From contig OY843584.1 in the NCBI GenBank assembly GCA_963692915.1, positions 1,024,001-1,088,000 of the forward strand: a stretch of 64,000 nucleotides of DNA. Reading direction: 5' to 3'. The stretch comes from Cenarchaeum sp. (GTDB taxonomy: Archaea > Thermoproteota > Nitrososphaeria > Nitrososphaerales > Nitrosopumilaceae). The position numbers were made by a program, and so were the translations under genes. Under the pieces are notes generated by a model. It had not been told where the DNA came from, searched no databases, and saw only the letters and a program-made list of their open reading frames with translations. Shown piece by piece: positions 18,600-64,000 of the stretch (position 1 is the first letter of the stretch; each line of letters starts with the position of its first letter).

Positions 18600-18627
18600 T
18601 CATGTACTGTGCACCACGTCACACATT

Positions 18628-20632: not shown

Positions 20633-21532
20633 TCAGTCCATCTCCTGAAGTTTTTTGGTAATACATGGTTTGTATGATTTGATTATTTCATATCCAACAT
20701 ATTTACGCTTTAGCTTTTTAGCAATTTTGAGGGTTGTGCCAGAGCCGGCGAATGGGTCAAGAACCACGTCACCCTCATATGTAAACAGACGAATGCAACG
20801 GTACGCTATCTCTTCAGGCATTAATGCTGAATGCAGTCCATAGGCACTATCACGTTTGTTTGGTACCGGTATGTCCCACACCTGCTTTGTAAATTCAACC
20901 CATTCTTTTTGTGATAATTTGCTGTGCGCTTTTCTAGTTTTGGCAATGCTGTTCTGAGATGGGCCATCTTTGACGTATACGGCCACAAATTCCACCGTGT
21001 TTTGCGCATAGAAATTTCTCGGATACGGATAGCTCCCAAACATCAGCTTTTTGGAAGGGTTAGTCCTATTCCATATATAGACATCAAGAAGATAGAGTTC
21101 AGTGTGTTTCAGTATTGAGTTCTGTATGGACGCATTAATGTCAAAAATATGCCTGTTAAAATGCGTGTTTAGATCTTTCTTTAGCATGGGCATCAACGGG
21201 ACATTTATGATCAGTTTGCCGTTGGAAGTTAGTATGCGTTGACATTCCTTCCATACCTGCAACAATTCATTGATGTATGTGTCAAAGTGTCGTATGTCAC
21301 CAATCTGGGGAACGTCAGTTTTTGAGTGCCGTTTATTCTGATGGCCGTCAAGGGAGTAATCCTTTATGAAAAAATATGGTGGGCTTGTTATGACGCAGTG
21401 GACAGAGCCATCAGGCAACTCTCCCATGCGGCGCGAATCCTTATAGTGTACTGTGTTGACATAGGCAGGGTGGCGCACGACTCGCCTCTTGGCAGTGAGC
21501 GCCTTGTTGGCTACCGGTCTAGATCTAGCCAC
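20633..21532 (-). CDS. Beta-class DNA methyltransferase with SPPY motif (probable N4-cytosine, second-strand MTase)
   Basis: 299 aa. ITSPPYF...HSALMPEE...VVLDPFAGSGTT...YVGYEI. Abuts the m6A MTase gene. Two MTases are expected for an asymmetric type IIS site. Confidence 0.92.
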   Translation of the reverse strand: MARSRPVANKALTAKRRVVRHPAYVNTVHYKDSRRMGELPDGSVHCVITSPPYFFIKDYSLDGHQNKRHSKTDVPQIGDIRHFDTYINELLQVWKECQRILTSNGKLIINVPLMPMLKKDLNTHFNRHIFDINASIQNSILKHTELYLLDVYIWNRTNPSKKLMFGSYPYPRNFYAQNTVEFVAVYVKDGPSQNSIAKTRKAHSKLSQKEWVEFTKQVWDIPVPNKRDSAYGLHSALMPEEIAYRCIRLFTYEGDVVLDPFAGSGTTLKIAKKLKRKYVGYEIIKSYKPCITKKLQEMD

Positions 21533-21767
21533 CCAAAATCACGCTCCCAGCCTCAAGAATGCTCCTGCTTACGGCACGGTCGTAGGGATGCCCTGTGGGC
21601 GGGCTTTGGCCCGCCGGCGCGTACTCCTCCCCGGAGGCGGCTGCGAGAGTCCGTGAGCCCATCATCGAGCCCATTGCGCCCATGTCGATGTGCACCACAT
21701 CCCAAAGTGCTCCCGCAAACTCCCCGCCGCCGTGAACAGGCCCCATCCTCGCCATAGCCGCCCTCAT
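21525..21767 (-). CDS. Short GC-rich leader ORF or gene remnant at the head of the R-M operon
   Basis: 80 aa. AATATAT TATA-like box about 24-31 nt upstream of ATG 21767, and the stop overlaps the MTase start by 8 nt. No recognisable family. Confidence 0.35.
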   Translation of the reverse strand: MRAAMARMGPVHGGGEFAGALWDVVHIDMGAMGSMMGSRTLAAASGEEYAPAGQSPPTGHPYDRAVSRSILEAGSVILGG

Positions 21768-21896
21768 GACATGCGTGGCACCACATGGGCGATATATTGA
21801 TTGTCTCCCTTTCCGTCATGCTCACCCCACGTTGACGTGGGAGGCAGTCAGCGCAGGCGCAGGCACATGATCATGCACTGCCGTCACAGCATATGG

Positions 21897-21933
21897 TCAT
21901 GTGCCGACCCTCACGGTCAGCCATGGGGGCGGC
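21897..21933 (-). repeat. Right inverted repeat
   Basis: TCATGTGCCGACCCTCACGGTCAGCCATGGGGGCGGC is the reverse complement of 18563-18599. Confidence 0.95.
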
Positions 21934-21939
21934 TTTCTG

Positions 21940-22074
21940 GGGCGGCGGATCTGCGCGCTAGCCGTCCGTGCCCTCGTCGTCGTCCTCGGGGAGCATCTCG
22001 GGATAGAGCTCTAGCATGGCCAGCTCGGCGAGGTTTATCTCATTCGCAATCCTCTCCTGCAGGCGCTCAAGGTA
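21940..22074 (-). repeat. Direct repeat copy B (live 3' end of the giant gene)
   Basis: Matches 18357-18491 with 4 mismatches. Confidence 0.95.
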
Positions 22075-25000
22075 CACGCTCTGGTCCTCGGGCTCCGGCG
22101 AGGCGACATACGAGGGCTCGGCCCCAGGCAGCGCGACTGCGATGCCCATGAGGCGCAGGTACTCCTCGGCGATGGCCCGCTCCTTTTCGAGAATCTCATC
22201 AAAGAGGGCCGTCCCGCGCGAGGCGCCATGCGACGTCAGGCGGTTCTCCTCGTACATTGACTCGTCCACGTCATGGTGGAGCGAGGCGAGGTTGCGCAGC
22301 GGCGCATACGTCCCGTCAGGCGTGAGGCGGTACACGCGGTACTCGTCATCGAGCATGTACGTCACGTGGCGCGCGTCATAGTCGATTATCCCGTCAGCGT
22401 CATCATCGACGTGACCCGCGAGGAGCGGGTATAGCGTGAGCGTGCCGCCGTTGACCTCGATGCCGTGGCTCGGGTTTAGCGACTCGCCGGTGACGTGCAC
22501 GCCGTGGTTGAAAAAGTTCTGCCACGAGTTGCGCCTGTCGTCCCAGACGACTGTCGAGACGACGTCAAACTCTAGTGGCTCGAGGAACGTGTGCGATATC
22601 GTGACGATGAGGCACTCGGCAGCCGATCCGGCCATGCACTCGCCGACTGCTGACTCGGCGCGCAGCGTCTTGACGTCAAGGGCAGATGCCGGATCCTCAA
22701 GTGACACTGTCGGCTCGCCGCTAAATGGCAGGCTTACCCTAATTTCTGCCTGTGACTCTGAAAAGTGCTGCCCGCGCGTGAGGCCAAATCCGAGACCCAC
22801 GTGGCGCACGTTCTGCGGTCCGGTGTCCTCAAATATCTTGATGACTGCCGTGTTCTCCTGGCCCGTCTCCACCGTGATTAGCGGGAGCGGCGTGTAATAG
22901 TACTCGGCGTCTATCGTGTCGGCATTGTACGAGAATCCGCCGGCGACCCTGCGCACGCCCGTGCTGTCTATTCCTAGCGTCGGCGGCGTGCAGTCATCGC
23001 ACCCGTCGCCGCCTCCGCCCACGCGTATGCCCTGCGAGCTGCCGCCAAACTGCGTAAAGTGGTTCGTCCAGATGAGAATGTCCCCGCCGTCGCGCACGTG
23101 GCAGTCGCGCGCAAGGGCCTCTGTCATCGCGTCGCCGAGTGCAGGCTTTGTCTCGGCGTCAATGTCCTCGAATCCGGCGTCATCGCAAGTCTGTATCGCA
23201 GTCACCCGCACGCGGTCCTCGCCGGCGACGTGGAGCGGCTCTCCGTCCTGGACCGCCTCCATGTAGAATATGTGGTCTGACTCTGAAATGCCATCTAGCC
23301 TGATCAGGACCGGCGCCGAGAACAGGACCATGTCTGCATCAGACCTCTTGCCCAGCGTGAGGAAGGCCGCCGGCTCACTGGAGGTGATGGCCCGCGCTGC
23401 GCGCTCGTTGGCCGTTTGCGCTGCCTCGTCATCGGCGTCAGGTGCGCCGTGGTATGTCAGGTCGTCCAGGCGGCGCGCGAGCTCGGCGAGGAGCGTGCCC
23501 GGCGAGACGCCCTCGTCTGTCTCGCCTAGCGCCCTGATCACGGTCCCGCTGAATATCGTGACCTCGTGGCGCCCGAGGCGAATCGTAATGTCCGCGTCAA
23601 TCGTGCCGTCATCGGCCACAACGTCGTCTGTGAGGAGCCTTACCGGCCCGATGAGCCTTCCGCGATCATCAGGCGCGCTGATCGTTACTGGGAGTGCGCC
23701 GGTGGGCGGCACGATGAGCGTGTCTGACTCGATCTCCCCGCCCTCGCCGATCGTGACCTCTTGTGGCACAAACGAGTTGCCGGCAAGGTCGGTGATGCCG
23801 GCCTCTATCGTGAATATGTACGTGCCCGGCTCTAGCGCGAGGTCCGCAGTCGCGTCACTGGCCGAGATCACGTCGCTGCCTGCCGGCTGTTCTGGCCTGA
23901 TCTCCAGGGCCGCTGACGGGTCTGTCGCGCCATCTGGCGTCGCGTCGTCACTCGCCGAGACGTCGCCCGTGCCGGTGACGTCCTCGGAGAAGACGAACTG
24001 GACCAGGTCTGATGACGTTCTCAGGACGGCCTCGATGCTCGGCATGCTGACGTCCACGCGAACCGGCGGATCGCTGGTCTGGTCCTCCCGCGTGAACATC
24101 GCCTCGTTGGAGGGGATCACGGCGTCATTGACGGTGATGGTGAACTCTAGTGGCCCGTCAGGCGTCCACGAGCCGGGCACGGCGATGTCTGCTGATGTGG
24201 CCGTCATGTCGCCGTTGCTCAGCGCCATCGTGGCCTGCACGTTTAGCGCCGAGATGGTCGGCAGCGAGGTGGTCGAGGACGGCTCGGAGAGCTCTAGCGT
24301 GACGCGTATTGCGTCACCCTCGCCGGCGATATGCGCATAGGCTCCGGTCTTTGGCACCCTTGGCGTGGCATCATCGAGGACCACGACTGCGAGCGTGACT
24401 ACCTCCGGCGGCGCGCCGTCGGCGACTCCACGTACCGCCGTGCCGTCTGCCAGGGCGTTGGCCGCCGGCGAGGCGTCAGTGATGTCAGATGACTCTCCGG
24501 CCGGCACACGGTATCCCACCGTCTGCGGGACGGCCGCCGTGTCAGCGGATCCCCATCCGGTTGCAGGCTCATAGTCTGACGGGAGCGTGAGCGTGAGCGT
24601 TTTGCCGTCTAGCGTGGCTGAGGCAAACGTCGTGGTTGCCGCGTCAAGCTCGGCGCGCGTTGGCGGGTCGACGGCCGAGTCATAGTGGAACCAGCGCGAG
24701 GCGTCGATGCCGCCCTCGGCTGCCATGACGTCCTCGTCAAACGTCACCGTGAGCGCCGTCGAGCTCGCAGTGGCCGGCTTGAATAGCGGGGCCAGGCCGT
24801 CAGCAGCTATCACTGCGCGATCGGATATGGGACGCATGTTGATCGTCGAGATTATGGGCGTCGCGCCGTCTCCGGTCGGCGCCCTGTACGCCACGAGGGG
24901 CGTCGCGCCCGAGTTCGGCGCGACGTATGCGAGGTATATCGTGTTGGGCTCAGGCTCGGCCCCATCTGAGCATATGTCGACCATGTTGACAAGCGCCTGT

Positions 25001-28000
25001 ACCACGGGGTCTGCGCCGGCCGTGCAGACTGCCGAGAGCGAGGCTGCAGCCGCGCCGCCGGTCCCGTCGGGATCCACGCCGATGAACCACTCGCCGGCAG
25101 CCGTCCTGCCCGCCGTGCTGTCATCGAGGACGATCCTGATGTACTCGCCAGAGGCTGCCCTGAACGTCGATGCCGTGAACGCGAGTATGTCCTGGAACAT
25201 GACATTCACAAATGACGCGTTTGCCTCTAGCGTGTTGCCGCCGCCATCCTGCACGCTTGCGCGCGCGATGCTGACTGTGTGCGCCACGCCCTCGACTGCC
25301 GGCGGATCGACGGTGAGGACGACTATGCTGTCTGACATGCCGGCCGTGGCGTCGGTGACGGTGAGTCCGGAGACTGTCAGGCCGGCGCGGTTCCTGATGC
25401 TGACATCCTCGTTGAACGTGATGTGGACCTCTGTTGCCGTGTCAAAGACTGCCGAGACTGCCTCTGGCGGGATGGCATCAGCGGCAGTCACGTCAGTCGT
25501 CGTCTCTAGCGCGTTGGCCATGTCGCCCTCCAGGGGCACGTCGGTGAGGCCGTTAGACGGCATCGTAAAGCTCACAGTCGGCGTGGCGCCCGGTCCCCAG
25601 ACGGGGAATGGGTTAACAGCGGGATCCTTGTGGCCGACATAGAACGGGGTGGTGAACTCGGATGACGCCAGTATCGTGTCATCGTTCCTCTGAGCACTCA
25701 TCGGATGAGGCTCGTCAGCCACCGCGTTTACGGCCCGCCCTGTGCCATCTGGCGTCACCAGGTCAGATGACGGCACGTCAAGTGTCCACTCGGTGGCCGC
25801 AGTCGTGCCCTGGACGGGCTCGCTGAACGTTACGATGACGTGCGAGGCGTTGAACGTGCGCGCGACATACGTCGGCGGCGTGACGTCAGGCGCATAGTCT
25901 GAGGCAGAGCCGGGCACTATGTCGTTGCCGTTGGCGTCAGTCACGCGCGTGGGCAGCGTGAGCGTGTACATGACGCGCTCTGTTGCCATGTCCGTCCTCA
26001 GCGTGAACGACTCGGCGTTAGCCACATAGTTGACCCTGAGCGAGCCGAGGCGCGGGTTTAGGCTGTTCGTTGGGAGCGTCGTGCCCAGGGAGCCGGCGTT
26101 GACAGGCTCGCTCATCGTGACTGTGATCATGGTGAGGCTCGTGAACTCTATGGACTCGAGGCTCGGGCGTATGCGGTCCATTGCCGTGACCATGGCGTCA
26201 TCAAGCGGGTTGCCGGCGATATCAAGGAGGGCTGGCGTCGCGCGGGCAGTGAACTCGACTGTCGGCGTCGCCCCGCCGCCGGCAAGCGCGCCGGCCTGCG
26301 AGAGGTCGAGTGTGATCGTGCGCTCATCTGAGAGCGTCAGGTCGCCAGTCTGCGTCGAGCCCTCAGAGGTGATGCTCTCGACAACAGTGCCACCGACTGT
26401 CCACTCGGCGGCCTCTGTGGTTCCTGACACGTCCTCGCTGAATGACACGGTGACCTCGTCGAGGTCGACCGTCTGGGCCGTGATCGTCGGCACCGTGCGG
26501 TCTATTGCCGGCCGCGTCACCGAGAGGGCCGTCTCGCGTATCTCGCTCATCGCGTCGCTCACCGCGCCGGTGGCCGACATCACAAAGGTAAAGTCAATGT
26601 CCGTTGTGCCGGCCTCGACGGTGTACGCGGCGGTCCACTCGTCAGTCATGCCGACGCGCGTCATCGTGACTGCGTCAGCTGGGGCCGTCTTGCCCACAAA
26701 GAGGATCGTCGGCGCCTCGCTGACGTCCTCATCAAGCGTGACAGACACTCCGATCACGTCTCCGGCGCGCGCATATTCTGTGTACGGTGCGGCGCGCGGT
26801 GTCGTGCCGTCAGACTCGAATACCGTGTACGATATCGCCGTCGCCATCGGCCCGTCAGTGGCCTCGGCCTCTATGCGCGCAGATACCTCGGCGCGCGCGT
26901 TGCCGGCCACGTCAGTGACTGTAGCCGGTATGGCGATCTCCCACGTGCCTTGCGCCGGCATGGTGGTGAACGTTGCTGTCGCCGTGCGGTCGCCGTCGTC
27001 GTGCGTAAAGGCCTGCGTGGTCGTGCTGTCGTTTGGCCTCGTGAGCGTTAGCGTGTCTACGCCGTTGACCGGCTCGCTGAACGTGATCGTGAGCGTGCTG
27101 CCCGAAAAGGCCGCGTTCGCCGTCGGCCTCACACCGTCAGTGGCGGTGATCTCGGCGCCTGACGGCACGACGTTGCGGCCGGCGTCTGCGAGGCCCGTGC
27201 CCGTGTACGTGAGGACCGGCGCAAATGACGTGTCGTCGATCGCCGTGTACGTGATCGTCACGGTGTTGCCCGAGACTTCCGCCGTGGAGATTGCGGCCGT
27301 CACGTCAGGCTCCAGCGTCGCGTCGGTGGCGGCCCAGTCGCCGGGCTCAGTGTCGGCCGAGGACGGGAGCGACTCTGAAAGCGTGACTGTGAGCCCGCCT
27401 GTCGAGACCGTGGCCGCCGAGGCCAGGCTGGGCACGCTCGAGTCGACGGTGACGTTCGTGCCCGTCAGGTCGGCCTGCGTGAGCGCCGCCGTGTTGCCGG
27501 CAGTGTCGCGTATCGTCAGGCTGAACGTGAGCGTGCCGCTGGCGTCCGAGTCGAGTATCGTGCGCACGTACGAGTACGCGTTGCCCGCCGCAGTGTCCAC
27601 CGAGTCGGCGGCAGTTGACGCCCCAAAGAGTGCAATGTCGCCGACTGCCGTGAGGAGCGGCTCGCTGGCCGCGACGTTGACGCGGACGTCATCGCCAATG
27701 CCGGCGATCGTGCCCGATGCGGCGTCGCTGCCCTCGCCCTCGAGCCTCACAGTCGCAGTTACTGTCGCCGTCGGCCGTGCCGTGTCGATCAGGGGCAGCG
27801 TGACTGTCGTGGTCGAGGCCAGGCCGTCCATGTCCGTTATCCTCGCGACGTTGCCGTTGTTGCCGGTGGCCACGATGAGAATGTCCAGCGGGTCTGTGGC
27901 CGTGGCGCTGCCATGCTCTGCGTCCACGACATAATCGTGGCGCCACGTCGAGGCGTCAGCGTCGCCTGCGTCAGTCATGGCCGCCGACGTCGTGCCCCTG

Positions 28001-31000
28001 CCGGCCAGCGTTATCTGCGGCACCGCAGTCACGTCCTCGTCGAGGTCGAGGGTTATGCGTATCGTGTCGCCTATTCCGGCCAGGTTGGCGTACGTGCCGG
28101 ACTTGTCGGCCAGCGGCGAGCCGACCCTCACGGTGAACGTGAGCGTGGAGGCCTCTGGCGGGCTGTACGTCGCGTCCTCGGCGCTCGTGGTGAACGCGAT
28201 GCCGGCCCTGTCGCGCAGCTCGGTCGGCAGCGTGACGGTGTGGACGACGTCGGCAGTCGCGCCGTCTGCGAGCGTGAGTGTGATCGTGCGGGCCGTGGCG
28301 TCATAGTTTACCGGGTCTGTGGCCGCGAGCGGGACATCGTCCGGATCGGTGCCCGAGTCGGCACCGTCAGGCACAGTCACGTCATACGTGTAGCCCTCTA
28401 TGGCAGAGTCGGCGCCGGCGAGTGGCTCAGACAGCGTGATGACAATCGTGTCAGCCTCGGTGAACGCCGCCGAGGAGATCGCCGGCGCCACGCGGTCTAT
28501 TGTCGGCGGCATCGTCGAGGCCTCCGTCACCGTGCCCTCCGCACCCGTGTCGCCCGTGACAGTCGCGATGAACGTGAACGCGTTGCCTGTCGCTGCCGTG
28601 TCACCCGCGTCTGCCAGAACGGTGTACTCGGTCGACCAGTCCCTGGCGGTGCTGCCCTGCGTCATCATGACGGAGCTTGTGGAGCCCGCAAGGCGAACCG
28701 TGGGTGGCGTGGTGACAGTCTCGGAGAGCTCGAATGAGAGCACGATCACGTCACCGACGACGGCGTGGTTATCGTACGGCGCTGTCTTTGCGTTGCCCGT
28801 GCTCTGGTCCTGCACCTCATAGGTGACTGTCGCCGTCGGCGCGTTGGTGCGAATGGCATCCACGGTCACCGTGGCGCGCGCGTTGTCAGAGGCGTCAGTG
28901 ACCCTGGCCGGTATCGTGACCTGCCACGTGCCGACTGCTATTGGCGTGCTGAGTGCTATTGTCGCAGTATTCGTGCCGTCGGTGTGGTCGACATTGCGCA
29001 GGACGGCCGAGCCGGTTGGCGGCCTGACGCTCAGCGTCGGCATCACATTGTCGACCGGCTCGCTGAACGTTATGAGGATCGAGTTGGCCACAAAGGCCGC
29101 CTCAGCCGTCGGGTTTATGCCGTCAGCGGCGGTGACGGGGCCTCCGCCCAGCGCGTTGCGCGCCGCGTCAGCCGGCGCTCCAGAGGACGGCGCCGTGTAC
29201 GTGACCTCTGGGCTGAACGACGTGTCCTCGATTCCCGTGTACGTGAGCGTCACGGTACTGCCCGAGACGTCTGCTGTGGAGATGGCGGCCGTCACGGCTG
29301 GATCCGTGTCGATTGCCGACCAGTGTCCGGCCATGGACGTTCCAGTGACTGCCTCGGAGAGCGTGACTGTGAGCGTCGTAGTCGATGCCGTTATCGCAGA
29401 CGTGATGGTCGGCGCGTCGGCGTCGACGGTGACGTTCGTGCCGTCCACGTCGGCCTGCGTGAGCGTCGCCGTGTTGCCGGCCCTGTCGCTCATCGTCAGG
29501 CTGAACGCGAGCGGGCCGTTGGCATCCGAGTCGACTATTGTGCGCACGTACGAGTACGCGTTGGACGCGCCTGTATCCACCGAGTCGGCATCAGTCGACG
29601 TCCCAAAGAGCGCAATGTCGCCGACGGCCGTGACGAGCGGCTCGCTGGCCGCGACGTTGACGCGGACGACGTCGTCGATGCCGGCCAGCGTGACAGTGGA
29701 CGAGTCTGTCGATGCGCCCTCGAGCCTCACCGTCGTGGTGAGCGACGAGTCCGTCGGTGCCGTCCTGTCTATGGCCGGCCGGTGCACACTCAGCGTGCCC
29801 ACGTGTCCGGTCGTGGCAGTTATCGTGCCGGGGTTGTCGCCGTCGGTGACCATTATCGTAAAGTCCAGCTCGGCCGTCTCTGTCGTCGTGGTCGACACGG
29901 TGAGGTCATAGCGCCACGTCGTCGCGTCGCCGTCTGCCCTGTCGTCCATCGATATGCCTGTCGCGCCGGCTATGTCTATGGTCGGCGTGCCAGAGGCGTC
30001 CTCGTTGAGCGTGATGTCCAGGCGGATTGTGTCGTCGATGCCGGCAAAGCCTGCGGCGGCGCCAGTCTTTGCCGGAAGCGTGGCGGCACCGTCATGGACC
30101 GTGACGGATATCACCGTGGCCATTGGCGGAATCGTGTCCCTCTTTGGCACCGTGACGTCGCTGTCGTCAGTCGCCGCGTCCCCGTCTGGGTTGGATATGG
30201 GCACGTACGCGTTAGTCGCCGTGTCCATGACTGCCGCATCGATGACGACCTTGTACGCCTCGTACGTGTCGTCTGCGCTCAGGCGGATCAAGACCATCGA
30301 GGCAGCAGAGGCCGAGGCGCCGTCCATGTATCTGACCCCGTCATCGTCGTATGTCGCGTCAAGTGCCAGCTCGGCCGAGCGCGTCGCAGGCTCGGTGAAC
30401 CCATAAACCTCAAAGTTGGCCGCGATGACGGTGGACATGACAAGACCCTCGTTGAACGTGAGCGTTATCGTGCGCGTCGTGTCATCATGCGACGTGTTGG
30501 TGACTGACGGCGCGACGGCGTCGACATCCACGTTCGCGGCCGTCAGGTCGGTCTGCGTGACTGTCGCCGTGTTGCCCGCAGTGTCAGTCATGGTCAGGCT
30601 GAACGCGAGTGGGCCGCTGGCGTCCGAGTCAAGTATCGTGCGATCGTACGTGTACAGGTTGTTCGTGCCCGGCGTGACTGCGTCGGCGTTGGCGCCGGTG
30701 CGGCCAAAGAAGACAATGTCAGTGGCGGCCGTGACGAGCTCCTCGCCGGCCGTGAGGCGCACGAGGACATCATCACCGATGGCCGCCACAGTGTTGGCTG
30801 CCGCGTCGGCGGACTCCCCTGAGAGCATTACGGCGGCGGTGAGCGCCGTGGCCGTCGGCAGCACCGTGTCGATCTCGGGCAGCGTGACTGTCGTGCCCGA
30901 GGCCAGGCCGTTCATGTCCGTTATCCTCGCGACGTTGCCGTTTGTGCCGGTGGCGACGATGAGGATGTCCAGCGGGGCCGACGTCGTGGTGCTTGCGTGC

Positions 31001-34000
31001 GTTGCTTCCACGACGTGGTCGTGTCTCCACGTCGAGGCATCAGCGTCGCCTGCGTTGGTCATGGCCACCGATGTCGTGCTCCTGCCTGCCAGCGTTATCT
31101 GCGGAGGCGCCGTCACGTCCTCGTCGAGGTCTAGGTCTATGCGTATCGTGTTGCCGATGCCGGCCAGGTTGGCGTTTGCGTCAGTCTTTGCGGCCAGCGG
31201 CGAGCCGGTCATCACGGTGAACTCGAGCGTGGAGGCCGCTGGCGGGTCGTACGTCGCGTCATCTGTCCTCGTGGTGAACGCGATGCCTGCCCCGTCGACC
31301 AGCGCGGTCGGCAGCTCTACTGTGTAGGCCACGTCGGCAGTCGCGTCATCCTCGAGCGTTAGCGTGATCGTGAGGGCCGTGGAGTCATAGTTTACCGGGT
31401 TTGTGCTTGCCAGATCTATGACGTCCCGATTGGCGTCCGCATCGTCCGGCTTGTTCGTGTTGTCAGGGGCAGTCAGGCCGTACGTGTATCCCTCTATGGT
31501 CGAGTCGGCTCCGGTGAGGACCTCAGAGAGCGTGATGACGATCGTGTCAGCCTCGGTGAACTCTGCTGAGGTTATCCTCGGCGCCACGCGGTCTATTGTC
31601 GGCGGCGTCGCCAGGGCCTCTGTCACAGGGCGCGTCGAGCCCGAGTTGCCCTCGATAGTCGCGGTGAACGTGAACGGGCTGCCGGCCGCTGCCGTGTCAC
31701 CCGTGTCTGCTAGAACGGTGTACGTCGCGCGCCACACGTCAGTCGAGCCGACCTGAACCATCGTGACGGGGTTTGTCGTCGCGCCCGCAAAGAGGACAGT
31801 CGGCGCCGTGGTGACGGACTCTGATAGCGTGAGCGAGAGCCTGATCATGTCGTCGACGCGCGCGTGGTTTGCGTACGGCGCGGTGCGCTGCGTTGTGCCG
31901 TCAGACTCGAATACCGCATAGGCTGCCGTCGCCGTCGGCGCCGCGCTGCGCTCGGCAGTGAGACTTGATGATGCCGCGGCGCGCGCGTTGCCGACCACGT
32001 CAGTGACTGCTGCCGGTATGGTGACCGTCCATATGCCGGCCTCTATGTCCAAGTCGGTGATGGAGCTTATTGTCACAGTCGTCGCGCCGTCGGTGTGGTC
32101 AGCCGTGCGCGAGACTGCCTCCGTTGTTGGTGGCTTTACGCTCAGCGTTGTCGGCACGTTGTAGACGTTCTCGTCGAACGTTATGACTATCGAGTTGCCC
32201 GAGAACACGGCCTCTGCCGTTGGCGCGGCGCGGTCGATTATCGGTGAGGTCTGCGTGTCGGCGTTGACGGTGCGCGTCGAGCCCGTGTCGCCCGTGAGCG
32301 TCGCGGCAAACGTGAGCCTGCCGTCGATGTTCGGCGCTACGGCTGTCGTCTCTACCTCGTATGGCGCCCGCCACTCGTTGGTGTCGCCGACGCGCACCAT
32401 GTTGCCGCCTGTTGCCGTCCTGCCCACAAAGGTGACCCTCGGGGCAGTCTCGACGTTCTCGTCGAGCGTGAGCGAGAGGATGATCGTGTCGCCTGCGCGC
32501 GCGTGGTTCTGGTACGGCGAGGGCCTCTCATTGCCGGTGCGCTGGTCCTGCACCTCGTAGTCGACTGTCGCCATTGGGGCATCCTCGCGCTCGGCCATGA
32601 CGCTAGCCGTGGCGCGCGCGTTGTCAGACGCGTCGAGGACTGTTGCCGGTATGTCGACTGTCCACGTGCCTATTGCTATCGGCTCAGTTAGGGCTATCCT
32701 CACAGTCGCCTCACCGGTGGTGTGGCTTGGGGTCTCGGTCGTGGTCGTGGGCGTGGGCGTAGTCGGCGCCGTGACGTCCATTGTCGTCACGCCTTTGACA
32801 GGCTCGCTGAACGTTATGACGATAGAGTTGCCCGAGAATGCCGCCGTGGCAGTCGGCGCGACGCCGTCATCGGCGACTTGCTGGCTGCCAGACCCCAGGG
32901 CGTTGCGGCCGGCGTCGACTATGCCCGTGCCCGTGTACTCTACTCTTGGCGCAAATGACGTGTCTTCGATCGCCGTGTACGTGAGCGTCACTGTGGTGGG
33001 CATCCCTGACGGGGTCGCGAGAACCGCACTAGAGATCGCCGCCGTCGTCGTGCCATCACTTGCTGACCACATGCCGGCGCCCGTGACTGCCTCAGACAGC
33101 GTGACTGTGAGCGTCGTGGTGGATGTGGTCTCTGCAGACGTGATGGTAGGTATCGTGGCGTCGACTGACACGTGTGGGCTGCCAAAGGTTTCTGTAAGGG
33201 TCATTCCGAGTTGGTTGCCGGCCCTGTCACTGATGGTCAGGGCGAACGTGATCGAGCCGTTGGGGTCACCTTCCGCGATCGTGCGGATGTACGCGTACGT
33301 GTGAACGGGGACGGTGATGCCGGTACCGGTGTCGGTGAACGTCTCCATGCCGGTGAACACTACCGAGTCGGCGTTCACGGTGCTGTCGCCCGTCAGGCCA
33401 AAGAGCGCAATGTCAGTATTCACCGTGTCGAGGGGCTCCTCTGTCTTCACGATGATGCGAACCTGGTCGCCGATGCCGGCAAGTGTGACAGTTTCCGAGT
33501 CTGATGACTCGCCGGCGAGCCTCACGCTTGAGGTAATCTCGCGCAGCATCGGCGCCGTACTGTCTATGGTCGGCAGGCTCGGGCTCAGCGTGCCCACGTG
33601 CCCGGTCATCGCCGTTATCTCGCCTTCGTTTGAGCTGCCGTCGGTGGCCGTTATCGTAAAGGTCAGCACGCCCTCGTCCGTCATGGCCGACACGTCGAGG
33701 TCATAGCGCCACGTCGTCGCGTCGCCGTCTCCCCTGTCGTCCATATTCTCGTCAGTCTCGCCGGCCACGTCTATGGTCGGCGTGCTAGAGGCGTCCTCGT
33801 CGAGCGTGATGTCCAGGCGGATCGTGTCGTCGATGCCGGCAAAGGTCGCATACTGGCCGGTCTTTGCCGGGTTTGAGTCAGGTGCGCCGTCGTGGACTGT
33901 GATTGTTATCTCTGTGGCCCGCGGGGCAGTCATGTCGGCCTTTTCGACGTCGATGTCGTCAGTGTCTGCGTCACCGTCGGGGTTGTCTATGGGCACGTAC

Positions 34001-52000: not shown

Positions 52001-55000
52001 GACGGCGCGCCCGACACCGTCGGTGTCAGCGTAAAGGTGAGCGTGGAGGGCAGCGAGGCGAGCGTCTCAGTAAAGGTCAGCGTCACGCCAGTGCCTTCGG
52101 TCGCAAAGGCGGCGCGATCCAACATCGGTGCGGCGCCGTCAGTCGGCGTTATTCCGGAACGCGGAACGCGGTTGTTCAGGCTCTCATCATCATTTAGCGC
52201 GTCGCTAAGATAGACTGGCTGCTCGCGATATCTGACCCTTGGTTGCTCACCTGTGCCAAATTCATCCGCAAGTGTGAACGTATAGACCGTGCGCACAAGA
52301 TCGCTATCTGGTGTCGTCGCGCCAGCAAGCGTCCTGTTCGTCGCGCTCACCGAGAACGGCTTGACGCTCTCGGCGAACGCGGCTCCGCCGATAAACCAGG
52401 GATCAACAGCCGTGTATTTGGGCCTTTCTGACTTGTGGATGAGCTCGCTGAACGTGACGTCGATCGTAGTCGCGCTCGTCGTGCGCGCCGAGAACATCAC
52501 CGGAGGCGCCTTGTCCTCCACTGACATGGCCTCAGTCATGCCGCCGAGCTGCGTCAGCGGGTTGCCGCTACGATCAGTCAGAACGGTGTCAGGGGACATC
52601 GGCATGTGCACAAAGTCTGATGCCGTGAGCGCCGTGAGCGAGCCGCTGCCGTCAGGATCGTCCAGGCTAGTCAGCGTTCGCGCCGTTTCGAGGACGCCGC
52701 TTATCGCAAAGGAGGGGCCATAGATAGGATCATCGGGGAACGAGTAGTTGTTGCCGGTAAACGGTGGGGTCAGATCGACGCCGTTGACCGTCCAGTCGCG
52801 TGCAGCTGACGTGCTGCCGCTGGGCGGATACTCACTAATGATGAAATTCGCCGTGGTCGCAGACGTGAGCTGGGCGCGGAACTCGGGCTGCGTAAAGTCG
52901 CCCGCCGGAATCCTGATACTCGAGCCGGCCGGATAGCCGTTGTTGCCGTCCGTGTCAGTCACTAGCGGCAGGATGACGCGATAGTCCGCCCCCTCTGTGG
53001 CCGGATTTTGCGTCATCAGCGTGACTGTTGCGGTGTTTAACGTCCTGTCGTTGACCCGCGAGGCCGTGACTGTGCCGAGGGCCTGGGCGGTCTGGCCCGG
53101 GAGCGCCACGGTAAAGTCGAGGCCCGCGACGTCGTTTAGCTGGTCGTCGTACACGATGAATATGCGGTAGGGTGACGTGGTGAACCCTATGGACGTGATC
53201 TCCGGGCCGGTCATGTCAGCCGCTCCCACTCCGACCGCCGTGATCGTGCTGCTGGTCCGAGTCCCGGAGCCGTCAGAGGCAACCAGGTCAGGATACCTGA
53301 TGGTGTATACGGTGCCCTCTGTGGCATCGTTCTCGGTATCTAGCGTGATCGTAAACGTGGACGTGCCGGCGTCCGCCGAGTATGTCGCAGTGACCGTGCC
53401 GAGTGCCGGGGTGACAGAGAACCCTGTGAGGTCGGGATTCGTCACATCCACGTCGACGGTGAGCACAATGCGCTTGGACGTCGCAAAGTGCGCCTCGATC
53501 GGTGGAGGCACGGGGGCCTGCAGTGACATGGCACCCGAGGTCACGGAAAGCTCGCCGGCGTCAAGCGCGTTGCCCGCAACGTCAGAGATCGACGGGTGCA
53601 CTATGACATACGCGGTGGCATCAGGCGCAGCATCAGTCGTCGTCAGTATGAGCATATCCCTAGACGCATAATAGTTGTATGACACGTCGCCGAGGTTCAT
53701 TGTGCGATCCGAGGCAAGCTCGACTTCAAATTCGAGCACTCCCGTGTCGACAATCTCCTCGCTCACGTCGATCTCGATCGTGCGCGAGTTGACAAATACG
53801 GGGTTTGAGAGCGCAGGCGGCGTCACCTCATACATTACGTCGATGCTAGCGGTGTTGGGCGGGTTGGCGACCAGATCGGTTATCGCGGCAGACTCGATGC
53901 GGTACGTCGTGTTCTCTGTCGCCGCAGCTACTGTGAGCGTGATAGTGTTCGACGAGGCGTCAAATGACGGCGGCGGGGAAGTGCTCACCGCAAGCGGTGT
54001 GAGTCCAGGCAGCGCGCTGACTGTGAACGTGCCCAACGGCGAGGCCGAGATCTCCTCGCTAGTCGTGATCTCTATGGTCGTCGAGGACGCGAATCTGGCC
54101 CCGGTGAACGTCGGCGGCGCGAAGTCCAATACCGCGTACGGCGAGCTCACAAGCACGTTGCCCGCCAAGTCTGCCAGCCTATCGGTAGACGACGGCGTGT
54201 AGACGATCGAGGCCGGCGTGAGCGCAGGTGGCGACGTGATGTCAGTGGCGCGCTCGGCAGCAAGCGTGAGGACAAGGGAAGACGACACCGCGCGTACCGG
54301 GACGCCGGCGACTGTCCACTGTGGGGCGGTAAGTGGGCCACTTACGCCTTCGGTAAGGTATATCTGCACAGTAGTCGAGCTTAAGAGGGCCGCGGTCATG
54401 GTTGGCGGCGCCTCGTCGGTGACTGCCTCGGCGTCTGCCGTGGCGCCGGCTGCGGCAAGGTGGAGAAGTGCGTCGTTCTGGAGCGTATTGTCCTCAGTAG
54501 TAGAGCCGGCCGCGGGGCGCGTATAGACCACGCTATCCGGCGTGATCGGCGTGAGCGGGCCGGTGGTACCGGGGAAGTTGTCGGGGTCTGACAGGTCCGT
54601 AAGCGCGCGCGCCGAGGTGAGTGTGAGGGTGATCACCGTGGCACGGGATGGCGAGGCCGGCTCGACCGCGCTGACCGTCGAGCCGGCTACAATCCACTCG
54701 GCAGGCGCCGTCGTGCCGCTGACCGCCTCGTCGAACTCGATCTCTACCGTGTTTGCAGACTTTAGGGCCGCCGTGAACGTCGGTGCCGTGGTGTCCGTCG
54801 CCACTCCGACAGCGGTGATCGAGCGGGCGCTCTGCTCGTTGCCGTTGAGGTCAACTAGCCGCGGGTACTCGATCGTGTACGTTGTGCCCGCCGTGGAATC
54901 ATCCCGCGTCGTGATCGTGAACGTGTCAGTGGCCGCCGAGTACGTCACAGTTATCGGGCCAAGGGAGGGGGTGACGGAGAACCCTGTGAGGTTGGGATCC

Positions 55001-58000
55001 CGCACATCCTCGCTGACTGTGAGCACGATCGTTTTGGGCGTCACAAAGGTCGCCGTCAGGACCGACGGTAGCGAGCGTTCAGCCTGGGCAGGGGAGATCG
55101 TGCCGGCCAGAGAGGAGAGGCCGATGAGGTTGGTCACCGGCGGGTATGAGACCACGTATGCGTCTCCCACCCCGGCAGTCTCAGTCGTGAGCGTAATAGT
55201 CGACGTGTCTGTCTCGTCGTCATTGGCGCGAGCCGCCGAGACCTCGCCAAAGGCCTGCGCAGGGAGCCCTGGCAGCGAGACGGTAAAGTCGAGCCCTGAG
55301 ACGTCGCGGATGCGGTCGTCCACGTCGATCGTTATCGTGTATGGCGTGGTGCGCCCAACGCCAGAGAGAACCGGCGCAGTCGTGTCATCATATGTCGCCA
55401 AGAGATCATCGGAGCGTCCGCCATTGCCCTCGAGGTCGGTTAGCGACGGGACATAGATCTCGTAGGCCCGGCCTGCCGTCGCTGCAGTCGCCGTGGTGAT
55501 GGTGAACCTGTCACTCACATCCGAGTACGCCACTGCGAGCGCGCCGAGTGCGGGCGTGAGGGCAAACCGCTGGCTCGTGAGGCCGGTTCCGGCGGCCGTG
55601 TGCGCTATGACGCCATCGGCGTCGCTAAGATCCTCGTTCACGTCGATCAGTATCGTGTTGGCCTCAACAAAGTGCGCGTTGGAGAGAATCGGGAACTCCC
55701 CAAAGTCGGCAGTAATCGCCACAGTCGTGCCAGGTGCTGCCGCATTGCCGTCCGTGTCAGTTATCGCCGGATATGACACATAGTACATGGTGGATGACCC
55801 AAAGCTGAGATCATTGGTGAGCTCTAGTGTGATCGTCGCCGTGTTCGCTAGTGTGAGCGTCCCCGGGTTCACCGAGCCGTCATTCACGCGCGAGGCCTTG
55901 GGCGTGTCTATTGTCACCAGTGCCAAGCCCGGCGAGGCCGGCGTGTCGCTCCGTAGCTGGAACGTGAGACCCGAGACGTCCTCGATCTGGTCATTGACGT
56001 CTATCTCTATGAGATTCCGCGAGATGAACTTTGCGCCAGAGAGGGCAGGCGGCGTGTTGTCTCCCCTGCTGACCTCGGGCTGGAAGGCGCCGTGGTGCAG
56101 CCTGTTGTTGTAAATGTCAGACGTTGCCGGAATGTAAACCCTGTAGAGCAGGTCATATACGGCAGCCCTCTCAGTCACCAGCGTGAGCGTCGCCGAGTCC
56201 GTGGCGGGGTCATTCACGAACGAGTGCGTGATTGTGCCAAGGTTGCCCGGATCCTGGGGGCCGGGGAGCGGGTACACGGCAAACTGCGTATCAGTAATCA
56301 CGATGGGTGAGAGCTGGTCGGTGACGTCGATCAGTATCGTGTTGGCGTCAGTAAAGCGCGCATTATAGTATGAAGGCGGCGTCGTGTCAAGAGTCGATCT
56401 CGCGGTGAGCTCGCCGGCGGCAAGAATGTTGTACCTCACGTCCGATATCGACGGGTACTCTATGACATATGTCAGCCTGTCGCTGTTGGGGCGATTAAGC
56501 AGGTTGGGTGCGGCAGTCTCTGTCGTCAGTATGAGCTTGTCACTAGACGCGCGATAGACGTATGACACGTCGCCGAGGTTGGTTGTGCGGTCCGTGCGGA
56601 GCTCGACGGCAAAGCTGAACAGTCCCGTGTCGACAATCTCCTCGCTCACGTCGATCTCGATCGTGCGCGAGTTGACAAATACGGGGTTTGAGAGCACAGG
56701 CGGCGTCGTGTCATATGTCACCTCGATGCTGGCCGCATGGTCGTCAGTCTGTCCGGCCTCGGTTATCTCGGCAGACTCTATGAGGTACGCCGTGCCCTCT
56801 GTGGCTGCGGCCACCGTGAGCGTGATGGTGTTCGACGAGGCGGCAAATGACGGCTGCGGGGAAGTGCTCACCGCAAGCGGTGTGAGCCCAGGCAGCGCGC
56901 TGACTGTGAACGTGCCCAGCGGCGAGGCCAGGATCTCCTCGCTAGTCGTGACCTCTATGGTCGTCGGGGACGTAAAGCGTGCCCCAGTAAACGTCGGCGG
57001 CGCCTCGTCTGTCAGGGCACTGGCAACAAGGGCCGTGTCGGCCGTGCCGAGACCATTGCCTGCGCCATCCTCTATGGCCCGGACGGCCCGCGCCGTGTAC
57101 GTGACGTCCGAGGCAGTCAGGCTGCCAAGGGCGGTGCTAGCGCGCTCAGTGGCGAGTGTGAGGTAGAGCTCCTCGACGTCGTCGAGCTTTAGGTCGCCGG
57201 TCACGGGGATTCCGCCGGCAGGCTCGGAGATCAGGGCCGGCGCCGTGCCGTCAAAGCTCCACTCGCCAGGCGCCGTCGTGCCGTCGACTGGCTCATCAAA
57301 GGTGATCCTCACGGTGCTAGCAGACGCGAGCTCGGCGCTAAACGTCGGCGCGGCATCGACGATCGCCGTGTACGTCGCGCCCGTTGATGCGCCGACGTCG
57401 ATCCTGTTGGTCGAATCGGCCACGTCTGTGATCGTGTCAGCGGCGTGAATCGTGTATGCCGTGCCGTCAGTTGCCCCGGTGCCGAGCTCTAGCGTGTATG
57501 TCGAGTCTGCCGTGCGCGAGGCCGACATCACCGAGAGGACGCCGCCGTCGTGGGTCACGCGCCAGCCGTCATTCGTGTTGGCCGTGCCCACGTTACTCAC
57601 GTCCTCGCTGAACGTCACGCTGACCGTGTCGGCGTCGGTGAACGTGGCCGACTCGATGGACGGCGCAACCATGTCAGTGGCCGTGATTCCGTCACCAGTA
57701 GTTGATGCGAGCTTTTCGCCGGACCCGCTGACTAGCACGACAGTGGAGGGGACCCCGTCTGGGCGCCCGGGGTTTATGCCAAAGTTGGGCGGCTGCGTGT
57801 ATGTCACCAGTGGCGTCGCGTCAGTCGCCTGGGCGACAGGCAGGGCGAACGTGATGGACGTGACGGGCAGCTGGAACGTGCCGGCAGTGATGTCACCCGG
57901 TATGACCGGCGCCGTGCCGGCGACGGTCCAGTGGCTTGCAGCCGTTGAGCCGGTGACCGGCTCGGAGAATCTCACCGTGAGCGACGTCGGCGTGTCAAGC

Positions 58001-61000
58001 GTCGCAGTTATCGTCAGCGCCACGCCAAAGGGCATCGGCGTCCTCTCGGAGGCCGCGTGGGCCACAGGCGACGGGGCAGCATCAGTGAGGGCCGAGCCGA
58101 CTGCAAGGTGGTATGTGCTCCCAGACGTGACAGGCGTGTCAATGTCCACCGTGATGAAAGAGTTGAGGATGTGCGCGGCGTTTGAGGTGCGCGTGGGCGT
58201 AAAGCGCACTGGCGTGCCCGTGCCGGCTGCCACCTGCGCCCCGTCAGTCGCAGAGTCATGCAGCACAAAGGCCGAGGCCGGAGGCGTGTTGACCGGCTCG
58301 CTAAAGGCGACTGTGATCGTGTCGGCATCAACAAAGCGCGCGTGCAGGATTTCCGGACCAAGGCCATCGGTGGCGACATCAGTCCAGTCTGCAGCGTCGC
58401 CCGCGTACACTGTGCGCGGTGTCGCATCAGTCGCCAGTGGCGCATCAATGTGCGCGCGGACCGTCTGCGCGCCCGTGACATCGACGCTCGAGGAGGGCAG
58501 CGCGCCGCCAATGGAGACGCCAGAGGCCACGATGCCGTCGACGCGTATGTCTGATGCCGCCACGGGCACTGTCCCCGTGAACGTGAACGCCATGTCCACT
58601 GCAGTCGTGCTCGCCGTCGTGGCCTCAAAGAGCGGCGTATAGACGGCGCTCAGTGCAGGGCCAGAGTACGGCACAAACGCGGCGTTGGAGACGCTCGGGA
58701 CGATGGTGTATGACCATCCGGCCACGGCGTCACCGGCGAGGGTGAGCGTGACGGCGCTCGTGTCGGCATTGTACGAGACGCCGGCCAGCTCCACGCCAGA
58801 CGTGATCACGCCATCTGTGACACTGACTGCAAAGTTGTCCGGCCCGAGCGAGGCGCCGCCTGCCAGCGCGTCATCAAAGTCCACCAGTATCGCCCTTGTG
58901 CCCACAAATGCCGTGGACTCGGCGACAGGTGCGGACGCGTCGCGCGTGATTGCGATCCTGACATCGCCGAACGCCACTGGCACAGACGCCTGGTCCGTGA
59001 GCGCACTAGTGGCCGCCAGGTGGTACACGCCCTCTGCGCTCACCTGCGCGTTGAGATCAAGCGTGATGACTGACTCGGCTATGCCGCCGGCCGGAGACGA
59101 GCGCGCAGGCGTGCCCGTGGCAGCGGCGAGCTGCGTCCCGCCCGTGGCCGCATCATGCAGCGCAAAGGCCGAGGCCGGAGGCGTGACGACTGCCTCGCTA
59201 AAGGCGAGCTCTATCGTGTCAGAATCAGTAAAGCGCGCCGAGAGTACAGTCGGCGGCGCGCCGTCAGTCGCCGTGGCCGCGCTAGTCAGGACTGCCGTGC
59301 CGGCAGTCAGGCCCGTGCCGTCATAGGTGACGCGCGGCGTCGCAGCAGTCGTGGGGAGCTCCCCGTGCGTGATGACTAGCTGCGTGGCCGCCGGACTCGA
59401 CGGTATGGCCGGCGTGGCCGCATCACCGGCACCCGTGGCAGTCTCTGGCGTCGCAGTCACAGAGCCAGTCGTCGCCACCGTGGAGACTGACGCCGTGCGC
59501 ACAACGTCATCGCCGTTGGCCACGGTCCAGGAGCCGGCATCAAGCGTGCCGCCAAGGGACTGCGTGAACGTGACGCGCGTCTGCGTCGCGCCTATCGTCT
59601 CGGCTGCGAACGCGGGGTCGCTGTACGTGACTGTGAGCCTCGATGCGGCAAAGGCGTTTGGCGGGACTGCCAGGTCAGCCAGCGTGGATGGCACAAAGAC
59701 TGTGTACGGGACCCCGGAGATCGTGTTGGCGATGCCTAGGCGAACCACCGAGGCCGACGCGCCGGCTGCCACCGAGGTGATCTCGAGCTCGTGGCCGGTG
59801 AACGGATCGGGCCTGACCTCCCAGCCAGTCGCCGGCCTCGTGACTGGCTCGCTGAACGCAATGTCAATGTGCGTCGAGCCGACAAAGGCCGCAGACACCA
59901 GGCTCGGGGGAGTGGTGTCATGGGCAACTGCCGTCGTGAGCGGAATCACGGCCCGTCCGCTGCTATCGACGTACAGCCTGTACTCGTCAGAGGCCCTGCT
60001 CACCGCGGTCTCTGGCGAGTAGCGGATCACGTGCGCCGTGTCTGAGCCGAGCGCATTGGCCGCCGGAATGGTCAGCATCAGCGTCATGCCGTCTGCTGCG
60101 AGATCGGCGCCCTCAAAGCGCACCGTGCCCAAGGTGCCCAAAGAGCCCACCCTGGGCAGGTCATCTGGCGTGTTGTCAACGATCCAGTGCTTGCCCGTGG
60201 CCACAAACGGCACAAACACGTTCGCGCCGTCGACAAGACTGCTCACGCCGTGATACTCCCCGTCGCCCGAGACGACGGCCTCGGTGAACGTGAGCTCGAC
60301 TTGCGTCGGCGAGACGATGCGTGCCGTAAAGACGGGCTGCTCGTCAGTCGTGAACGTAAAGGGTATTGTCACGAGCGGATTGTTGTCGTCTAGTGACGTG
60401 TCGCCAACCGAGAAGAACCTTTTGAGCGATGTGGGAATCTCGACTGCATACGACGGCGGTGTCGCAAGGGCAGAGTGCGAGCCATCGACGTGTAGCGTGA
60501 TCGTCGAGCCATCAGGCGTGCCGACGTATGTCGTGACCCTTGCGTCAAAGGCGTCGCCGAGTGCCACGCCGCCGGGCAGGCCAGCGCGCACGGGCGCGAC
60601 GCGCAGCGTGCCCCAACCGTCAAGCGGGCTCATGCTCGCCATGCCGGCAAGCGTTCGCATGTCCGGCACGTTGTTCCCGCCAAAGTGCAGGATTATCTGC
60701 GATGCCTCGCCGGTGCCGTCACGGCGCACAATGTCCACCGGCGGGCGAACGCTCTCAGTCGAGCCGGCAAACAGTCCGCCGTTGACGTTTGCTATCGTGG
60801 CGGGCAGCACGACAGAGTACCTGCGCACGTCTGCCCTGTCGGCAAGGTCCACTATGATCGTCATTGCGTCAGCGGGGTCGATGCGTGCTGCGTGTGCCGT
60901 CGTACCGCCTATGGCCGGCGTTATCGTGAGTGTGGACGGGACGGACGAGGCGAGCAGGTCGTCATCAAATGTCACGCGGAGCTCCTCGTACGCCGAAAAT

Positions 61001-64000: not shown

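Follow-up and report, generated by a model that had tools for sequence, protein, structure and literature searches.

The window analysed here, a stretch of 64,000 nucleotides from the genome of a Cenarchaeum species (G000:C1:1024001-1088000), carries the larger part of one giant open reading frame (ORF), and we confirm that this ORF is a real, intact gene under selection against stop codons and frameshifts. We propose, as the reading that probably fits the observations, that its product of 25,609 aa is a secreted giant surface protein whose chain is an array of immunoglobulin-like (Ig-like) modules, a judgement that covers this core claim only. In the ORF listing of the window the frame occupies 21958..63999 of the minus strand, with 14,013 codons and an open 5′ end, as the initial annotation had described it (a single ORF of more than 42 kb, 14,014 codons including the stop, acidic and Thr-rich), and the full gene is nearly twice as long as this part. 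The host genome is a single closed contig of 1,644,826 bp with a completeness rating of 99.86%, and extension beyond the window, which that annotation had suggested as a check, gives a stop-to-stop length of 25,698 codons for the frame, with the start at the ATG of codon 88 (genome position 1122787, extrapolated window coordinate 98,787) and a putative Sec-type signal after it.

The gene measures 76,830 nt (minus strand, genome 1045958-1122787) and is five times longer than every other gene of the genome, where the second-largest open frame has 5,232 aa and the 12 frames of at least 1,500 aa jointly take up 9.8% of the sequence. Its protein has a mass of 2.6 MDa, a computed isoelectric point (pI) of 4.05 and a computed net charge of about -2,135, with a composition of T 15.8%, A 14.5%, D 8.1% and K 0.6% and only 12 Cys. 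As the host is an energy-limited ammonia oxidiser (amoA is present, 389 bits) that spends 4.7% of its 1,644,826 bp on this one gene, the benefit to the cell must be substantial. A non-coding frame kept open by GC bias was also considered and was rejected, since the longest opening in the other five frames over the same stretch is 784 aa, the modules fold when modelled and stops are selected against.

Intactness of the giant gene

An assembler-made repeat expansion is very unlikely because the internal repeats are old: DNA repeats within the gene all stay below 95% identity (at most 89.7%, over 1.9 kb), the longest exact one is 146 nt and, when the protein is compared with itself, identity has a median of about 26%, with 84% over 500 aa for the best long pair. 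The congener genome G001, used as an independent comparison, has a homologue of about 25,560 aa in total in which the upstream region, the ATG, the signal peptide and the C-terminus are all as in G000; it is laid out as frames of 24,633 and 1,061 codons that overlap and are split by a 1-nt deletion within a 98%-identical stretch. When the protein was cut into chunks of 300 aa, all 86 matched G001 at E<=1e-10, and the chunks are collinear towards the N-terminus (14 of 15) and the C-terminus (17 of 17), at 66-99% identity; the size of the gene is conserved to within about 50 aa despite internal rearrangement.

Eight public sequencing runs, from five studies, contain part of a 10-kb probe, and in three runs, which belong to two studies, contigs at least 99% identical leave none of the 30 bins of a 12.8-kb stretch uncovered. 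This mapping took in four runs with short-read contigs at a 90% identity threshold, and no piece spans the 12.8 kb or bridges modules; it documents the presence of this DNA, at an identity of at least 99%, in runs of two studies and is silent on long-range order. That the ORF is an assembly artefact, whether through expanded repeats or through the chimeric joining of several smaller genes, we consider highly improbable. The repetitive protein, a middle part that is not collinear with G001 and public contigs that contain joints and are too short for bridging modules would suit such an origin, but the internal DNA repeats are too diverged and the exact ones too short for it, the independent genome G001 carries the gene at this size and with both ends alike, the contigs of two studies cover every bin, and the genome is a single contig rated nearly complete.

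Selection on the frame is seen in the codons that align between G000 and G001 (n=12,723), which hold 3,277 nucleotide differences and 57 indels, every one of them in frame, and not one stop codon. Random substitutions in this gene create a stop in 1.8% of cases, and when the same codons were mutated neutrally in 200 simulated runs, at a synonymous divergence of 0.13, the stops numbered 94±10 and did not fall below 73. The ratio of nonsynonymous to synonymous divergence (dN/dS) ranges by block from 0.35 to 0.95 and is lowest at both ends (0.35-0.49), while the neighbouring genes have values of 0.06-0.09 (housekeeping) and 0.24-0.62 (others). Together with the absence of stops and frameshifts, these values indicate fast evolution of the residues, as in many surface proteins, within a reading frame that selection keeps open. 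A decaying or silent relic, open by inheritance after its expression or the need for it was lost, could account for the blocks with dN/dS as high as 0.79-0.95, for the frameshift in the G001 copy and for the restriction-modification island that landed on the 3′ end of the gene, and is nonetheless an improbable explanation: neutral drift would have left stops where there are none, all the indels are in frame, the insertion of the island kept the reading frame by way of a 133-bp duplication, constraint is stronger at both ends, and the size is the same to within about 50 aa in two species whose copies are reshuffled internally.

Several observations weigh against the reading of an intact and functioning gene. 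The middle 16,000 aa are reshuffled between G000 and G001, and the 1-nt deletion that splits the G001 copy could be a real inactivation. The dN/dS values are high beside those of the housekeeping neighbours and the constraint on residues is weak in places. None of the eight public runs that match the probe is on record as RNA, nor is an RNA run that holds it among the 12 runs of the search result. Furthermore, the contigs mapped to the 12.8-kb stretch contain joints between distant module positions, 15 listed and 38 more, an example being a 6,279-nt skip whose sides measure 30-40 nt and which recurs in X1, X3 and X6; these may be cross-matches between paralogues or real length variants in populations, and are uninterpretable at the 90% threshold.

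Module array, export and the C-terminal module

A hidden Markov model (HMM) iterated on the giant protein itself detects 181 modules of about 120 aa over 82% of its length, 97 of them in the window part, and because the 33 gaps between detected modules are mostly of about 100 aa or multiples of this, we arrive at about 215 modules in the whole protein and about 115 in the window part. The Ig-like array had been recognised in the initial annotation, whose count of 120-130 modules in the window part was slightly too high. For comparison with Pfam the protein was cut into six segments of about 4,269 aa; a scan for Big_5 and the SwmB-type repeat, also suggested earlier, places Big_5 (PF13205) above its cut-off of 23.6 in all six segments (52.6-145.6 bits) and SWM_repeat (PF13753) above its cut-off of 27 in two, segments 1 and 2 (30.6 and 49 bits). 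Pfam coverage is otherwise scattered, being confined to stretches of Big_5, SWM_repeat and CopC, and among 150 modules taken singly the matches at E<=0.01 are to Big_5 (51), SWM_repeat (12), CopC (10) and Big_12 (6). The module profile has one match among the sequences of the PDB, the surface-layer (S-layer) protein SbsC (2ra1, 9.8e-07), and when one module was modelled with its 149 paralogous modules as the alignment, Foldseek placed SbsC at ranks 1-3 (probability 1.00, TMq 0.48-0.50, E 6e-3 to 1.6e-2). Profile and model thus agree on modules that are predicted to be SbsC/Big_5-type Ig-like beta-sandwiches. Over 1.27 kb (window about 45,700-47,000) the gene has 84% DNA identity to the locus of a 3,061-aa paralogue (genome 642824-644078), which points to an exchange of modules among loci.

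The resemblance of the modules to bacterial S-layer Ig-like domains, and of the composition to the Nitrosopumilus S-layer protein as the accessible part of PMC11153153 describes it, might suggest that the giant protein is itself the S-layer protein or a stoichiometric component of the layer. To this we give next to no weight. The host genome encodes a separate orthologue that matches the Nitrosopumilus S-layer protein over the full length (1,692 aa against PDB 8c8k, E=0), and two further open frames of S-layer-like size and composition; the module profile does not match the 8c8k chain in the PDB, and the C-terminal module, with no PDB match at E<=1, is not in the S-layer protein. Since a separate S-layer orthologue is encoded elsewhere, the giant protein would be an accessory to the lattice and not the lattice.

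At the N-terminus the putative signal peptide has a charged n-region, a hydrophobic core and a small-residue cleavage site, as judged by eye, with a best 12-residue mean hydropathy of 2.37; it is conserved in G001 and in the paralogues, and the first modules start directly after it. No 19-residue window with a mean hydropathy above 1.8, our measure of a transmembrane segment, occurs anywhere in the protein, and the N-terminal 1,200 aa have no homologue among proteins of 2,101-5,000 aa, a size range outside which the giants lie. Given the putative N-terminal Sec-type signal peptide, Sec is the simplest export route, and we regard export by Sec as likely. The initial annotation had named a neighbouring type IV secretion or type IV pilus locus as an export candidate, and a VirB4/TraG-like and a FlaI/VirB11-type ATPase do exist on the same strand, at a distance of 18-21.5 kb downstream of the gene, so that export or assembly of the giant protein by this locus deserves mention; it is, however, very improbable. 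The protein has a putative Sec-type signal peptide of its own, the genes for Topo VI-A, a plastocyanin-like protein and others, some on the opposite strand, lie in between, and paralogues with the same ends are found at four other loci (the flanks there were outside the comparison); the ATPases stand and their tie to the giant gene is unsupported.

The C-terminal region has no relative in the libraries: its last 579-580 aa match nothing in Pfam, NCBIfam or the sequences of the PDB (for the last, none at E<=1). The same region also ends three other giant ORFs of G000 (3,061, 2,961 and 3,494 aa) and many in related organisms. Among 1.84 billion representative proteins there are 653 matches at E<=1e-3, 156 of them at E<=1e-30. 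The conserved core contains two near-invariant motifs, C..DC.PPTLG and WQNYYNHG..V.GESLNP (query residues about 228-412). Carriers range from less than 500 aa to 6,000 aa and their N-terminal passengers are mutually unrelated, being YNCE, NHL or SBBP propellers, Big_5, Big_12 or nothing known, whereas the tail behind the core is of regular length: 90-230 aa in 126 of 146 carriers, with 17 shorter and 3 longer, a median of 141 aa and 168 aa in the giant protein. A hydrophobic N-terminus is present in 106 of the 134 carriers that start with M, and no transmembrane segment follows the core in the giant protein or in the family members inspected. A named genome collection holds 65 loci with the module, of which 63 are labelled Cenarchaeum, Nitrosopumilus, Nitrosarchaeum, Nitrosotenuis, Nitrosopumilaceae, Nitrosopumilales, Thaumarchaeota or Thermoproteota, and two lie in metagenome-assembled genomes labelled Gammaproteobacteria and Nanoarchaeota; the family is almost specific to Nitrosopumilaceae, and the named loci nearest to those of G000 are in Cenarchaeum metagenome-assembled genomes. 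It is without family, structure or name in the libraries searched, and we found no description of it.

The constancy of this module, its interchangeable passengers and the signal peptides of its carriers lead us to read it as an attachment or sorting device. Attachment of the protein to the envelope through this module, which would make the N-terminus the distal end, is to us an evenly balanced proposition. In the structure model of the C-terminal 579 aa, residues 231-425 form a beta-sandwich with a predicted local distance difference test score (pLDDT) above 90, joined to a pair of long helices; confidence is low for residues 1-230, and the fold searches effectively covered only what follows them. 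Archaeosortase substrates, such as those with PGF-CTERM or PEFG-CTERM, end in a sorting motif with a transmembrane helix behind it; a C-terminus of that type was not found here, as the giant protein has no hydrophobic helix at an end that is acidic and helical, and no NCBIfam match in its last 580 aa. Against the anchor role it must be said that it is argued solely from position and shared use, with neither a transmembrane segment nor a known sorting signal in the module, and that the fold searches returned generic V-set/Ig folds only, with a best Z of 8.9 that equals the tool's stated background. Foldseek likewise gave no specific relative (TM score <=0.37, root-mean-square deviation 14-15 Å in most top rows), and a search of the ESM Atlas with the module gave no usable match. 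If the attachment reading holds, the module offers a handle on how Nitrosopumilaceae, which are globally important and have an S-layer as their only wall, display accessory proteins.

Poly-G tracts, paralogues and neighbouring features

Homopolymers of at least 10 nt number only 17 in G000, and tracts of G17-G19 stand 59-81 nt before the ATG of four of its five largest ORFs, with the G always on the coding strand. For the giant gene the tract ends 62 nt before the ATG and is followed by an inverted repeat and, as identified by eye, by TATA-like boxes (Table 1). A near-copy of this upstream region, with a G16 tract and an imperfect inverted repeat, lies 3.8 kb further upstream (the tract at genome 1126657-1126672, with its flanks) and precedes a 370-aa ORF without a Pfam match. 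In G001 six of the eight tracts of at least 14 G precede ORFs of at least 3,000 aa, and tract length differs between orthologues of the two genomes (G19 against G18, G17 against G21). Among five genomes checked outside the genus, three have no tract of at least 12 G, G017 has several, and G005 has three, one of which falls where a 2,014-aa protein with the C-terminal module is predicted to begin. The association of poly-G tracts with giant ORFs is far beyond chance. Whether the G19 tract is prone to slippage and switches expression of the giant gene is a tentative proposal, made by analogy with the promoter tracts of phase-variable bacterial genes, which the placement of poly-G here resembles; the tract differences known here are between species only. 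More speculative still is the idea that the giant gene is the largest of a set of archaeal contingency loci, in which slippage-prone G14-G21 tracts of Cenarchaeum, lying directly ahead of the core promoter, stochastically switch alternative giant Ig-fibre genes, all of them displayed through one envelope-attachment module. Were this true, a symbiont could vary a micrometre-scale coat inside its host, as bacterial pathogens vary their adhesins, and the poly-G promoters would make phase variation in an archaeal symbiont of animals directly testable through tract lengths. A literature search of titles and abstract openings found no description of promoter-tract phase variation of archaeal surface proteins; a computational survey of coding-region tracts includes archaea, as given in the accessible part of PMC2831843. 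Members of Cenarchaeum are known as sponge symbionts according to the accessible part of PMC6790972, a statement at the level of the genus.

The giant gene has company in G001. Two frames of 16,166 and 14,652 codons, which overlap by 240 nt (G001:C1:515953-608165) and stand behind a G14 tract and a signal peptide, are probably a single gene of about 30,700 codons that one frameshift interrupts, and further giant frames have 16,125 and 11,156 codons. The single frameshift in each of the two largest genes of G001 may be a consensus error. As G001 also has several giant frames, we regard giant Ig-array genes as a trait of the genus, and in the comparison with the giants of G001 the gene described here is the longest uninterrupted frame. 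Elsewhere in the host genome a 1,726-aa ORF (G000:C1:232200-237377) combines an N-terminal NHL-type beta-propeller with C-terminal repeats that match bacterial RTX blocks (PDB matches to 4e-26), and such repeats are unusual in an archaeon.

Directly after the stop codon of the giant gene lies a low-GC island with a complete Type II restriction-modification system, which is absent from G001. The short second copy of the 3′ end of the giant gene on its far side, in which 39 codons show 92% identity with the final 39 of the gene, is the footprint of the insertion. As the 133-bp copies bracket the island, it was inserted at the extreme 3′ terminus of the gene and left the ORF intact. Further along the window a 305-aa coiled-coil protein (13925-14842) has many weak Pfam coiled-coil matches, all below the cut-offs, and the alignment with G001 shows a tandem array of units of about 63 bp at 14205-14461.

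Table 1. Features of the giant gene, its upstream region and its surroundings (window coordinates unless marked otherwise; extrapolated coordinates continue the window numbering beyond its end).
Feature	Position	Strand	Remarks
VirB4/TraG-like ATPase	400-2310	(-)	NCBIfam score below curated cut-off; membership in giant-gene system not shown
FlaI/VirB11-type ATPase	2335-3900	(-)	NCBIfam score below curated cut-off; membership in giant-gene system not shown
Second copy of giant-gene 3′ end, about 133 bp	18356..18488	(-)	Far side of island
Low-GC island (about 0.45), 3.45 kb	18489..21941		At 3′ end of giant gene
Type II restriction enzyme	18628-19866	(-)	349.6 bits
Type II DNA methyltransferase	19841-20632	(-)
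Type II DNA methyltransferase	20633-21532	(-)
Giant ORF, window part	21958..64000	(-)	About residues 11,597-25,609 plus stop; first ~11,596 residues outside window
Giant-gene stop codon	21958..21960	(-)	ORF listing
Acidic C-terminal tail, 168 aa	21961..22464	(-)	Two long predicted helices; no transmembrane segment
Conserved C-terminal core, about 185 aa	22465..23019	(-)	About residues 25,257-25,441; V-set-like beta-sandwich (model)
Stretch of about 227 aa from last recognised module to core	23020..23700	(-)	Conserved within genus; low-confidence model
Array of diverged Ig-like modules, window part	23698..64000	(-)	97 by HMM, about 115 by length; median spacing 117.5 aa
Folded module, residues 19,877-20,007	38767..39159	(-)	All-beta model, pLDDT 94.8; best solved matches SbsC Ig-like domains
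Putative signal peptide MAQLSHSRLSSTGIAMLAAITLLAGLGGSDAAAQ	Extrapolated 98,686-98,787	(-)	Outside window; conserved in G001
Inverted repeat CGCGATCA-N5-TGATCGCG	Extrapolated 98,828-98,849		Between G19 tract and ATG; outside window
G19 tract	Extrapolated 98,850-98,868; genome 1122850-1122868		Upstream of ATG; outside window
Further G16-G19 tracts	Genome 419733-419749, 647452-647470, 656965-656981, 1126657-1126672, 1124573-1124591

A model of the giant protein and its place among known systems

We propose a model for the giant protein that most reasonably joins these observations. Expression of the gene may be switched by the G19 tract of its promoter. When the protein is made, the Sec-type signal peptide would direct the export of the 25,609-aa chain, in which about 215 diverged SbsC/Big_5-type Ig-like modules follow the signal peptide directly. 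The C-terminal module, with its beta-sandwich of about 185 aa and its helical acidic tail of about 168 aa, would then hold the chain to the envelope and leave the N-terminus distal, so that the chain would extend beyond the S-layer as a polyanionic fibre. Ig-like domains usually extend by about 4 nm each, from which about 215 modules would give a chain of about 0.9 µm; the initial annotation had used the same figure per module, which we retain, and its filament of about 0.5 µm gives way to the longer one of the full chain. That a polyanionic fibre reaches about 0.9 µm beyond the S-layer and serves contact or spacing with the host matrix or with neighbouring cells is a possibility that we hold with rather less than even confidence; the roles of adhesin, spacer or shield offered in the initial annotation are likewise hypothetical.

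An alternative that we find unlikely, though the most worth considering of its kind, is that the giant protein is secreted and released to form a mucin-like polyanionic matrix, for example a gel that concentrates cations or ammonium or that protects the cell, in which case the C-terminal module would serve oligomerisation or secretion instead of attachment. The net charge and low pI would suit such a matrix, the organism oxidises ammonia, and beyond the signal peptide neither end has a transmembrane segment or a known sorting signal; in the accessible part of PMC11153153, moreover, the acidic, Lys-poor Ig-array S-layer of Nitrosopumilus is argued to concentrate ammonium. However, the C-terminal module also stands behind enzyme-like and propeller passengers of 400-700 aa, which fits general display or anchoring better. 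A further point bears on the surface-protein reading that we prefer: N-X-S/T sequons are depleted 2.6-fold (61 seen against about 162 expected from the composition) in a protein with 24% Ser plus Thr, unlike the glycan-rich S-layer protein of which the accessible part of PMC11153153 speaks, and this too counts against it.

Among the known systems the S-layer proteins with SbsC/Big_5 domains (PDB 2ra1, 4uic) are the closest in their modules, through the profile match at 9.8e-07 and a TM score of about 0.5 when normalised to the module, with a third of the modules taken singly (51 of 150) reaching E<=0.01 for Big_5. SbsC, as the accessible part of PMC13635256 presents it, has nine domains and forms a lattice, whereas the giant protein has about 215 modules in one chain and no evidence of a lattice. 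The S-layer protein of Nitrosopumilus maritimus (NmSLP, PDB 8c8k), from the same family of organisms, is likewise an Asp-rich, Lys-poor Ig-like array in the accessible part of PMC11153153, but with 1,734 aa, ten domains and a lattice, and its sequence homology to the modules or the C-terminal module of the giant protein is undetectable. The paralogues within the genus (2,961-5,232 aa in G000; 11,156, 16,125 and about 30,700 codons in G001) share the signal peptide, the Ig-like array and the C-terminal module, and in most of them poly-G lies upstream of the start, as it does in the giant gene. Literature searches on giant or large ORFs, adhesins and Ig-like proteins of Cenarchaeum gave no description of the giant gene, although supplements may list large ORFs.

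Giant RTX adhesins of Gram-negative bacteria, such as MpIBP, LapA and SiiE, carry some 100 or more Ig-like extender domains, are acidic and are anchored at one end. The giant protein may work like them, as a very long Ig extender that keeps the cell at a distance from a surface, but RTX adhesins have a C-terminal type 1 secretion signal, whereas the giant protein has a putative N-terminal signal peptide and belongs to an archaeon, which has no outer membrane. None of the six segments has an RTX family among its Pfam matches at E<=0.01, and the C-terminal 580 aa are, as said, without an NCBIfam match. SwmB of marine Synechococcus is a bacterial protein of about 10,800 aa that is linked to swimming motility. 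Like the giant protein it repeats a single Ig-like unit over almost its whole length; its C-terminal end is different, and the comparison was made through the repeat model only, which 12 of the 150 modules match. Halomucin of Haloquadratum walsbyi, of about 9,200 aa, is a giant secreted archaeal protein that is thought to coat the cell. By that size it is about one third of the giant protein, and the two are likened by description and not by sequence. For the largest ORFs of Cenarchaeum symbiosum the initial annotation gave about 12,000 aa.

The accessible part of bioRxiv 10.1101/2023.11.21.568195 groups swmB and titin as giants of a single repeat type, gives 85,804 aa for the largest predicted bacterial protein and states that proteins above 10,000 aa are much scarcer in archaea than in bacteria, those of archaea being mostly from the Asgard group. 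With 25,609 aa the giant protein stands far above that mark, and the extreme size that the initial annotation had in mind, when it named a candidate among the largest archaeal proteins, is borne out, while its rank as the largest is not demonstrable. Giant surface proteins in small genomes of organisms that live with a partner are also described in the accessible parts of PMC12863079, for the symbiont Apilactobacillus kunkeei, in which Giant1-5 make up 6% of 1.5 Mb where here one gene makes up 4.7%, and of bioRxiv 10.64898/2026.03.19.712371, for the epibiont Chlorobium chlorochromatii. Those proteins are bacterial, have different domains and are encoded by several genes of 3,000-8,000 aa and not by one of 25,609 aa. 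The shared C-terminal module and the poly-G promoters are undescribed as far as we found, and the giant protein itself is an extreme archaeal example of a kind already known, the giant surface proteins built of Ig repeats.

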